The translations under genes were made by a program, and so were the position numbers. The notes below the pieces were generated by a model. The model searched no databases. It was given only the letters and a program-made list of their open reading frames with translations, and was not told where the DNA came from. A stretch of 61,491 bases of DNA, taken from Thermoplasmatota archaeon (GTDB lineage: Archaea > Thermoplasmatota > Penumbrarchaeia > Penumbrarchaeales > Penumbrarchaeaceae). The first letter of the stretch is position 1. Each line of letters opens with the position of its first letter. Below are positions 15,871 to 17,427 of this stretch, in pieces. The stretch lies in NCBI GenBank assembly GCA_029762535.1, contig JARVGK010000018.1, positions 1-61,491 on the forward strand, given 5' to 3'.

Positions 15871-17427
15871 TCATTGCTGACGAGCCCTGAAGGAGAATCG
15901 GAGAAATACAGGGGCCCTCACGTCCATCCTCTTCTTTCGGCTCAGGACGAACTGCAGGCCCCGGTCGTCCATGCGCAGATTGATATCCTGCAGGCCCCTG
16001 ACCATCTCTATCCTCTTCGAAGCGTGCATTCGCTCCAGCGACCTCTCCACCTTCCAGGCAGCGAGCTTGGCGAACGCGGACGCGTAGGTGATCCCGGTTG
16101 GGACCGCCCCCCTCTCCAGCATCCTGGACCTCTCGGGTTCCGGCACCCCTTGTATGTCACCGTCGAGGACGAAGATCTCATTGAAGGCGGCCGGACCGCA
16201 GATACCCATCCCCTCCTTGGCCTCCCTGAGGAGGATCTCAACGGGAACGGAATGGGACATCCCAGGTCCTGGTGTCCGTGAAAGTGAGTGTCCCTCGTTG
16301 GTTCGGACAATGTATCCTTTCCAAGCCACGGACCTGCTTGCCTCGGACCCGCCCCCCTCCTTGAGCCTTTCGATGATAGAGGCCTCTATCCCCTTTCCAA
16401 CTTGGGTAGAGGGGGAGTGCCTGTATGAAATGAACGATGCGAGCTCCTCATCGGTAAGGTCCCAGGCGGCATGGAACTGCGGGAACGACAGTACCCTGAT
16501 ATCAGGGTAACCTTCCCGGTACATCAGCAGTCTCTCGACGCCAATGTCGATAAGCATTACCGAACACTCGATCCCGGAACCCTTCAATATGTCATCCCTG
16601 ACGAGGCCAAAGGTACCGATCTCTATATCCCCGCCGAATATCTCCATCTCCGTCCCCTCCTCGAAATATGGAAAGGGGCATTCCTTGCGCCTGAGATCGA
16701 CGTCCTTGATGTCCATCTCGTCCAATATGAAATTCACGATGCTTTTGGCCTTGTCCATGTCCAGCGGGCAGCCCATTATGGCTATGGAGAGAAGATTGTA
16801 CGTCCTCAAGTGATAGGGGTCCTCGATGGCCTCCCTCCTGAAGTTCTGGGCGACCGTGAACAGCCTTATGGGTATGGATGCGGGATCGTACGTGGCCTGA
16901 AGTGTCCTCATCCAAGCGGTGGGCATGAACGCTCTCATCGTGAGAGAGGTGTCCTCCAGGCCGCTGCCCGTGATCTCCGGCAACGCGTTCATAAGGTTCA
17001 CAGCGTCCCTGACCGTCAGGCCAAGCTCGGCGTGGAGGGAGTTCATGAACTCTTCAGCGCTTGTCCCCTCGTCTATGGTGTCAATTAGGTTCCACAGGAC
17101 CGCCAGGTCCATTTCCGGATACCGGTCCTTTATTCGAACCTCCAACTGGGGGGTGGGTCCGATCGGTGCGAGCCTCTTGTGCTGGACATGGTAGATCGCG
17201 TCCCTGAACACCGGGAAGACCGGGCCCGTCATTGTCTTGACCTCCGAGAAGTCCATGAAAGGATCGGTCTGGATCTCGTCGAAACCCAATGAGAGCATCA
17301 ACTCCCTCAACCTCTGTAAATATTCATTGACCGGATGGGGGCTTCCCTTTCCAGAGAATATGTCCACGACCTCGTCTAGAGCGATCCCCCTGGAGGGGGG
17401 CTTCTCCAGGCCGTCCTTATCACTCAT
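15871..17427 (-). CDS. sepS: O-phosphoseryl-tRNA synthetase (SepRS) family protein, strongly divergent active site
   Basis: Colinear with SepRS as recalled: GxxHP..QRLRE..LGFxE, motif 2 FRRE, IEIGTFG, motif 3 GVERL, DIR..FPQ, CGPAxxNE, TGIxY, DINL, DVRxPxF. Orthology and function uncertain (see findings). Confidence 0.8.
   Translation of the reverse strand: MSDKDGLEKPPSRGIALDEVVDIFSGKGSPHPVNEYLQRLRELMLSLGFDEIQTDPFMDFSEVKTMTGPVFPVFRDAIYHVQHKRLAPIGPTPQLEVRIKDRYPEMDLAVLWNLIDTIDEGTSAEEFMNSLHAELGLTVRDAVNLMNALPEITGSGLEDTSLTMRAFMPTAWMRTLQATYDPASIPIRLFTVAQNFRREAIEDPYHLRTYNLLSIAIMGCPLDMDKAKSIVNFILDEMDIKDVDLRRKECPFPYFEEGTEMEIFGGDIEIGTFGLVRDDILKGSGIECSVMLIDIGVERLLMYREGYPDIRVLSFPQFHAAWDLTDEELASFISYRHSPSTQVGKGIEASIIERLKEGGGSEASRSVAWKGYIVRTNEGHSLSRTPGPGMSHSVPVEILLREAKEGMGICGPAAFNEIFVLDGDIQGVPEPERSRMLERGAVPTGITYASAFAKLAAWKVERSLERMHASKRIEMVRGLQDINLRMDDRGLQFVLSRKKRMDVRAPVFLRFSFRARQQ

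Follow-up and report, generated by a model that had tools for sequence, protein, structure and literature searches.

What does a SepRS-derived protein do in an archaeon that forms Cys-tRNA by the direct CysRS route and lacks SepCysS? The question is raised by contig JARVGK010000018.1 of a Thermoplasmatota archaeon (assembly GCA_029762535.1); its positions 1 to 61,491, read on the forward strand and referred to here as the window, carry a gene for a SepRS-like protein of 518 aa. SepRS is, to our knowledge, one of only two aminoacyl-tRNA synthetases (aaRS) beyond the standard twenty. It is widely used in genetic-code expansion. A natural rebuild of its pocket with the catalytic and tRNA-binding machinery kept would show how synthetase specificity shifts, and the SepRS-like lineage could supply a new orthogonal pair. 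Judged from its sequence, the protein may be an active, SepRS-derived class IIc ligase with a substrate other than O-phosphoserine (Sep), probably apolar, aromatic or cationic, and with a tRNA-like acceptor; we give this reading about an even chance. An earlier note on the window had left the choice between a different amino acid, a different tRNA and a non-catalytic binder, and these possibilities are supported by the invariant motifs 2 and 3, by a pocket conserved in about 46 orthologues and by the lack of SepCysS in 29 carriers of such genes.

The same note had regarded the protein as a candidate new aaRS. The family, its pocket change, its operon and a speculation on its role are, however, already published (Mukai, Amikura, Fu, Soll, Crnkovic 2022 Front Genet; PMC8762117, section 3.3.1). 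In these SepRS-like proteins from Thermoplasmata, Asn-X-Gly is changed to Ile/Leu-X-Asp, TRAX heads the operon, recJ follows in the high-GC Guaymas Basin/Zodletone lineage, and SepCysS is absent. The authors speculated on attachment of a different amino acid or on some other reaction that uses tRNA, and their discussion lists the function of the SepRS-like homologues as an open question; no later functional study of the family was found in a literature search. The locus in the window is another member of this family: the host belongs to the Thermoplasmatota, the pocket strand has the Ile/Leu-X-Asp form, TRAX lies upstream and recJ downstream.

Homology to SepRS

15871..17427, minus strand: SepRS-like gene, 518 aa (P0001), with class IIc catalytic core, insertion domain and C-terminal anticodon-binding domain (TIGR00470 and 2du3 fold match)

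The earlier note had described the open reading frame (ORF) as colinear with SepRS and had not stated its strand. Colinearity was confirmed by the TIGR00470 (sepS) model, by the solved structure 2du3 and by Foldseek. Residues 27-511 aligned with positions 43-528 of TIGR00470 at 200.3 bits, which is below the curated equivalog cut-off of 380.65 bits, and all 23 orthologues of the family scored 120-230 bits. The closest solved structure was A. fulgidus SepRS (2du3; E 2e-51, residues 28-510), and PylRS (E 2e-6) and PheRS-alpha were distant runners-up in the same sequence search. An AlphaFold2 model calculated from a 62-row alignment reached a mean predicted local distance difference test score (pLDDT) of 89.4; its top Foldseek match was 2du3_A (E 4e-40, TM 0.51), and the low TM score reflects the orientation of the domains to each other. 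The protein thus shows SepRS homology over its full length and the fold with all three domains. With the PheRS alpha models TIGR00468 and NF003210 it scored only 60-74 bits against cut-offs of 237-350.

The nearest database proteins carry the names Thermoplasmatota or Thermoplasmatales archaeon, including ex4484_6; identity was 43-56% to most database members of the family and 86% to one. The clade is rare. Among 1.84 billion cluster representatives, two full-length representatives at 42-43% identity (P0025, P0123) and four fragments (P0122, P0124, P0133, P0136) were found, and the whole SepRS superfamily amounted to only 42 proteins at E 1e-30 or better. JGI labels some of the relatives O-phosphoseryl-tRNA synthetase, and NCBI names them "hypothetical protein".

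The protein could be a divergent but bona fide SepRS which charges Sep onto tRNA-Cys. Full-length colinearity, the common fold and the JGI label agree with this, whereas the score of 200 against 380.65 bits and the NCBI name speak against it; the amino acid pocket and the route to Cys-tRNA bear on it more directly.

ATP motifs and amino acid pocket

16831..16842, minus strand: core of class II motif 2, F196-R197-R198-E199, which binds ATP/adenylate; kept, each residue being shared by at least 90% of canonical SepRS and at least 80% of clade sequences
16528..16542, minus strand: class II motif 3 G296-V-E298-R299-L, retained (alignment)
16546..16554, minus strand: pocket-floor strand L292-I293-D294 in place of SepRS Asn-X-Gly (alignment; compare Ile/Leu-X-Asp of PMC8762117)
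16912..16935, minus strand: segment R165-W172 (RAFMPTAW), H186 to F and T188 to P in A. fulgidus numbering (alignment; T to P in 100% of the clade, H to F in 96%)
16783..16800, minus strand: strand Y210-I215 (YNLLSI), S231 to I/V/L, A232 to L, S233 kept, C234 to L/I/M (alignment)
16663..16680, minus strand: loop C250-F255 (CPFPYF), SepRS K-R-S-K-Y-Y to Y/C-P-F-P-Y-F; F252-P253-Y254 on PheRS-alpha F-P-Y

Motif 2 (FRRE) and motif 3 (GVERL), which had been reported as kept, were located at residues 196-199 and 296-300; R197 and E199 do not vary in alignment A1. The ATP-binding residues of motif 2 (F-R-R-E) and motif 3 (G-x-E-R) are intact, as expected of a catalytically competent class II synthetase. 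The segments reported as changed, namely RAFMPTAW, YNLLSI, CPFPYF, LID in place of N-L-G, and EAKEGMG, are likewise all present in the places given for them.

For comparison of the pocket, A. fulgidus residue numbers were taken from the sequence alignment of the SepRS-like protein with 2du3, and 93 canonical SepRS were compared with 46 distinct clade members within an alignment of 148 sequences. Relative to A. fulgidus SepRS, the protein carries S185A, H186F, T188P, G190A, F230N, S231L, A232L and C234I; furthermore, K269C, R270P, S271F, K272P, Y274F, Q279E, N325L, L326I and G327D. The altered pocket columns are 96-100% conserved in the canonical SepRS, and the residues replacing them are 83-100% conserved in the clade, which answers the question raised by the earlier note of whether homologues share the substitutions. 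In the Asn-X-Gly strand, Asn and Gly occur in 100% of canonical SepRS; the clade has Ile or Leu in the first position and Asp in the third in 96%. Because these columns are conserved in canonical SepRS and differently conserved in the clade, the pocket changes are not due to chance.

Altogether, canonical SepRS have 170 columns with at least 90% conservation. The clade keeps 65 of them, has a different conserved residue in 34 and is variable in 71. Kept columns include F196, R197, R198, E199, E262, E269, T272, G274, G296, E298 and R299, as well as E402, N416, D502, G505 and P506 in the anticodon-binding domain. The 34 columns conserved with a different residue are concentrated in four stretches lining the pocket (167-171, 191-213, 248-273 and 291-301), and a further group is found on helix 55-80.

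Residues T188, S231, S233 and N325 of A. fulgidus SepRS are those which we take to bind Sep in 2DU3. The clade shows T188P, S231(I/V/L) and N325(I/L), in addition to G327D, and S233 alone is kept. The replacement of the polar phosphate ligands by other residues, as previously proposed, therefore holds for three of the four ligands and not for all four, since Ser233 is retained. A bona fide SepRS would be in keeping with the retained S233 equivalent, but the equivalents of H186, T188, S231, N325 and G327, which are 96-100% conserved in the 93 canonical sequences, are all replaced.

The loop CPFPYF had been compared with the FPF loop of PheRS, and this resemblance was borne out by a profile alignment (hhalign, probability 99.4) of the SepRS-like clade with PheRS-alpha of the same genome. 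F252-P253-Y254 and E260 fall on F-P-Y and the final Glu of the PheRS segment F-P-Y-T-E-P-S-M-E. L292 is matched to the Ala that governs PheRS specificity, and D294 to the Gly after it; F167, P169, L212 and S214 fall on the PheRS residues His, Ser/Thr, Gln and Glu. In PheRS of T. thermophilus and E. coli, the phenyl ring lies between the aromatic residues of the F-P-F/Y pair, pocket depth is determined by the Ala, and the alpha-amino group of the substrate is bound by the His/Ser/Gln/Glu set. By its sequence, the clade pocket has thus regained an aromatic pair, its phosphate site has become aliphatic, acidic residues E260 and D294 have been added, and the usual alpha-amino ligands have been lost. 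A pocket built of Phe, Pro, aliphatic residues and F-P-Y, with acidic E260/D294 at its floor, weakly suggests a substrate whose side chain is apolar or aromatic and may end in a cationic or hydrogen bond-donating group.

Cys-tRNA synthesis in host, class and phylum

The host genome has a size of 2.96 Mb and is 93% complete. It encodes a normal CysRS (552 bits). The absence of a SepCysS gene from the window, noticed before, extends to this whole genome, in which the best match reached 50.7 bits against a cut-off of 365.25 bits. The genome search for canonical sepS, pscS and cysS which the earlier note had suggested thus returned CysRS, no second sepS and no SepCysS.

The analysis was extended to 37 species genomes of the class and to a phylum sample of 401 genomes. 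Homologues of sepS occur in 30 of the 37 class genomes and in none of the 364 genomes elsewhere in the phylum. Only one of them, in genome G029, scores above the cut-off (446 bits), and its SepRS has N-L-G, H-M-T and the acidic loop intact (L041:2962-4599). G029 is also the sole class genome with SepCysS (401 bits) and the sole one without CysRS; no TRAX was found in it. SepCysS was not found in the other 36 class genomes, including all 29 which carry a sub-threshold SepRS-like gene, and CysRS is present in all these 29 carriers. This complementary pattern of SepRS/SepCysS and CysRS argues that the remodelled SepRS-like proteins no longer act in Cys-tRNA synthesis. It also argues against a bona fide SepRS, as Sep-tRNA-Cys would have no converting enzyme in the carriers. 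We consider such a SepRS very improbable.

The class represents a natural series with canonical SepRS plus SepCysS in the absence of CysRS, remodelled intact forms, and catalytically degenerate forms. In PMC8762117, no SepRS or SepCysS was reported in other Thermoplasmata; G029 adds a canonical SepRS/SepCysS user to this lineage.

Conservation and phylogeny

One orthologue of the SepRS-like gene was found in each of the 23 other genomes of the family (23/23), at 42-49% identity and with the reading frame intact. The ratio of nonsynonymous to synonymous substitutions (dN/dS) was 0.046-0.149, as determined by the Nei-Gojobori method for eight pairs of orthologues whose dS of 0.33-1.39 was below saturation. 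A tree with homologues from related genomes had been recommended, and relaxed selection consistent with decay had been named as a finding that would count against an altered function. In the maximum likelihood tree, the clade of family f1 groups with that of the sister family f2 (SH-like approximate likelihood ratio test, SH-aLRT, 99), on long stems and apart from the canonical group (99), and relaxed selection is contradicted by the low dN/dS and the occurrence in all 23 genomes. Because dN/dS is low and conservation is even across the domains, the gene is not decaying, and its catalytic and RNA-binding parts are both constrained. A gene in decay, left over from a lost SepRS/SepCysS pathway and without selected function, would account for the loss of SepCysS, the long stem branches and the modest identity within the family; intact reading frames, purifying selection, evenly conserved domains, and conserved synteny and translational coupling leave such a remnant hardly credible.

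Sister lineages differ in the state of the motifs. The f2 proteins have a pocket strand H-(F/L)-E and intact motifs; in f5, the Asn is lost and motif 2 reads F-R-K-E; in f8, the pocket strand is Y-I-N and the arginines of motifs 2 and 3 are lost. All three keep the C-terminal domain. Other divergent SepRS-like clades are metagenomic (P0127, P0126, P0129, P0131): P0127 has an L-V-D pocket strand together with degenerate motifs 2 and 3, and P0129, P0131, P0154 and P0157 are extended by about 100-150 aa at the N-terminus.

Anticodon-binding domain, tRNAs and synthetases

15883..16440, minus strand: C-terminal anticodon-binding domain; within-clade mean pairwise identity 0.52-0.58, compared with 0.60 for the catalytic core
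16204..16224, minus strand: anticodon-reading loop E402-G408 (EAKEGMG); first Glu (A. fulgidus E418) kept, other acidic/polar positions lost

The equivalents of E418 and N432 (A. fulgidus numbering) are kept, and E420, N422, T423, K424 and several Arg are lost, variable or replaced by Gly. The anticodon face, proposed to be rewritten, is better described as relaxed, as E418 and N432 are kept and no new set of conserved residues was found; these two residues are also the ones which a bona fide SepRS would share. The N-terminal extension is shortened as stated previously, though modestly so, the PHP motif being preceded by a median of 33 residues in SepRS-like proteins versus 46 in canonical SepRS.

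The earlier note had further advised a search for unusual tRNAs. Rfam and ARAGORN censuses of the host genome yielded 43 tRNAs covering 42 of the 46 standard anticodons; Asp-GTC, Lys-CTT, Leu-TAG and Pro-TGG are missing from this incomplete census. No orphan, dedicated or suppressor tRNA was found among them.

Three tRNA-Cys(GCA) genes were detected by ARAGORN, and an extra tRNA-Cys was considered as a private substrate. This was rejected, as the A73 type is the ordinary tRNA-Cys of the class. It is located at L020:1501-1574 (contig C58:78659-78732, minus strand), has a GGAGAG(A/G) acceptor stem and A73 in place of the usual U73, and is 85-97% identical across the class, also in genomes without a sepS homologue; therefore, CysRS of this class must accept A73. 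The two U73 copies lie on contigs of 512 and 697 bp, have no relative in kin genomes and belong to the short contigs with off-composition GC. The assembly contains many such contigs of about 500-970 bp with a GC content of 37-53% compared to about 57% for the genome (including L018, C82, 697 bp, and L019, C100, 512 bp). Three of them carry tRNAs without counterpart in relatives, namely the two U73 tRNA-Cys and a second tRNA-Ala-TGC; these short contigs are probably stray sequence. In two other genomes, partial copies of the tRNA-Cys 3' half lie about 150 nt from the full gene (G013:C51:18836-18867, G023:C50:24375-24396), an arrangement typical of tRNA genes into which an element has inserted.

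Synthetases present in the host are those for Trp and Tyr, five PF00587 enzymes, two PF00152 enzymes, a class I LysRS, ArgRS, PheRS-alpha and CysRS. Replacement of a missing synthetase by the SepRS-like protein was therefore rejected for Phe, Tyr, Trp, Lys, Arg, Cys, Asp/Asn and the Gly/His/Pro/Ser/Thr group, which are all covered; Ala, Glu, Ile, Leu, Val and Met were outside this check. Additionally, the genome encodes a CysRS/MshC-like paralogue of 424 aa (L005:1480-2754, contig C36, minus strand) with 266 bits against a cut-off of 340 for cysS and 161 against 485 for MshC. It covers model positions 1-402 of 466, and is thus without the C-terminal part of CysRS, adjoins a MATE transporter and occurs in some class genomes only.

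These results bear on a further alternative, namely a catalytically active enzyme that forms adenylates but would pass the amino acid to a protein, a small molecule or a modified base instead of a tRNA 3' end, in the manner of GluQRS/YadB, EpmA/PoxA, AsnA or the amino acid:carrier-protein ligases. Retained ATP motifs next to a remodelled amino acid pocket, the loss of the alpha-amino ligands usual in this subclass, and the lack of both a dedicated tRNA and a gap in the synthetase set are all in line with it. However, the complete anticodon-binding domain is kept and conserved like the core, whereas known paralogues which do not act on tRNA usually shed it, and no carrier-protein, biosynthetic or EF-P-like partner occurs in the conserved neighborhood. 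We regard this alternative as unlikely.

Genomic neighborhood

17420..18034, minus strand: TRAX/translin-family gene, upstream; its stop and the SepRS-like start share 8 nt (ATGAGTGA)
14089..15825, minus strand: bacterial-type RecJ (DHH, DHHA1 and RecJ_OB domains), 45 nt downstream; TIGR00644 510 bits, cut-off 397

A GAGGAGG sequence precedes the SepRS-like start. The acidic TRAX residues E84, E87, D119 and E123 are invariant. In all sufficiently long loci of the family, the order KaiC, FtsX, ABC, FtsX, TRAX, SepRS-like, RecJ, HAD is found on one strand. In f2, 8 nt are common to the SepRS-like gene and RecJ, and TRAX is located elsewhere; in f8, TRAX adjoins the SepRS-like gene and RecJ is absent. 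Within the class, RecJ was detected only in f1 (21 of 23 genomes) and f2 (2 of 2), always adjoining the SepRS-like gene, and in none of the 12 other genomes; in the two f1 genomes without RecJ, the locus meets a contig end. The association of RecJ with the SepRS-like gene may be a single historical event because f1 and f2 form one order. TRAX occurs in 36 of the 37 class genomes. As these include genomes without a sepS homologue, TRAX does not depend on the SepRS-like protein.

This gene order bears on the main rival, a non-catalytic RNA- or tRNA-binding subunit of the co-encoded nucleases (TRAX RNase and RecJ exonuclease) which has lost aminoacylation. The overlap of the TRAX stop with the SepRS-like start, the conserved linkage, which is ancient for TRAX with canonical SepRS too, and a RecJ that accompanies only this clade and always adjoins its gene are what such a subunit would lead one to expect. 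In f8 and in P0127, P0129 and P0131, moreover, the anticodon-binding domain is kept while motifs 2 and 3 decay, and neither an orphan tRNA nor a missing synthetase was found. On the other hand, the arginines of motifs 2 and 3 and the adenine-stacking Phe are invariant in f1 and f2, and the pocket has acquired a new, strongly conserved set of residues, needless for a pure scaffold. The genomic links are themselves weakened by the presence of TRAX in genomes without a sepS homologue and by the restriction of RecJ to one order, possibly through one ancestral event. A non-catalytic subunit is thus possible, though in our view rather unlikely.

Recoding of TGA, considered because in-frame TGA codons were flagged in RecJ and TRAX matches of relatives, was rejected: the TRAX alignment of G009 overran the gene's own stop, and the RecJ flags were judged likely to be of the same origin. 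An ORF for an EndoIII/HhH-GPD glycosylase (13397-14239, minus strand) lies between RecJ and HAD and, as called, overlaps the 3' end of RecJ. It was not detected at that place in other loci of the family; in f2, such an ORF follows RecJ. The GC content is 55-59% around the SepRS-like locus and in the rest of the window, compared with 35.5% at positions 1-3000, upstream of a tRNA-Arg(CCT) at 8588-8665; this low-GC region is consistent with foreign or variable DNA.

Proposed activity

As an active ligase with a substrate other than Sep, the enzyme would activate another amino acid or a carboxylate with ATP. The activated substrate would then be transferred to the 3' end of a tRNA or a tRNA-like RNA, with the anticodon reading changed or relaxed. 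In view of the translational coupling to the TRAX RNase and the lineage-specific RecJ downstream, a link to a nucleic-acid processing pathway is proposed, into which the RNA partner or the product may feed.

Several results weigh against such an active ligase. The residues which in PheRS hold the alpha-amino group (His, Ser, Gln and Glu) correspond to F, P, I/V/L and S in the clade; a standard alpha-amino acid might therefore not bind in the customary manner. The f8 proteins of the same class keep the gene and its TRAX linkage, yet motifs 2 and 3 are degenerate, so that the selected function may need no catalysis. The tRNA censuses gave no candidate for a private partner. Finally, as the synthetases checked leave no gap, a second charging activity would have no obvious role in translation.

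A bolder form of the proposal is a natural synthetase of new specificity, derived from SepRS after CysRS had made SepRS redundant, which would charge a non-Sep and possibly non-proteinogenic, aromatic or cationic amino acid onto a standard tRNA or an undetected RNA; or else an aminoacylation of RNA ends, without described precedent, in processing or repair coupled to TRAX and RecJ. We hold this form doubtful. In any case, the question is narrowed by strong constraint, by the absence of a synthetase gap to be filled and of an obvious private tRNA, by the PheRS-like aromatic element and by a RecJ confined to carriers.

Comparison with known systems

The protein shares with the published Thermoplasmata SepRS-like proteins (PMC8762117) the phylum, the L-I-D motif, TRAX upstream, recJ downstream and the lack of SepCysS, and no essential difference was found. 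New with respect to that work are the presence in 23 of 23 genomes of the family, the dN/dS values, the full list of columns conserved with a different residue, the PheRS-like F-P-Y reversion, the confinement of RecJ to carriers, and the canonical SepRS and SepCysS of G029 in the absence of CysRS.

Canonical SepRS (A. fulgidus 2DU3; TIGR00470) has the same domain order, fold, motifs 2 and 3 and most of the anticodon-binding domain, and is frequently linked to TRAX. The SepRS-like protein differs from it by an identity of only about 28-30%, a score below the cut-off, the lack of a SepCysS partner, a shorter N-terminus and a shorter loop after the F283 strand. At the level of the clade, the differences are H186F, T188P, S231(I/V/L), N325(I/L), G327D, K269Y, S271F, K272P and Q279E.

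The catalytic core can also be aligned with PheRS alpha, F-P-Y...E of the clade falling on F-P-Y-T-E-P-S-M-E. Unlike PheRS alpha, for which it scores 73.6 against 350 bits, the protein has the SepRS-type insertion and C-terminal domain; the specificity Ala is Ile or Leu, the next Gly is Asp, and the alpha-amino ligands are absent. A separate PheRS-alpha gene is present in the same genome (contig C80).

PylRS is a class IIc enzyme with a hydrophobic pocket which relies only weakly on the canonical alpha-amino ligands. It belongs to the same subclass as the SepRS-like protein; the similarity is confined to the shared core, and the SepRS-like protein is without the PylRS-type tRNA-binding domain. 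GluQRS/YadB, EpmA/PoxA, AsnA and HisZ show that aaRS cores can persist outside translation for adenylation or for binding only. They derive from other aaRS families and are usually without an anticodon-binding domain, whereas the SepRS-like protein retains it.

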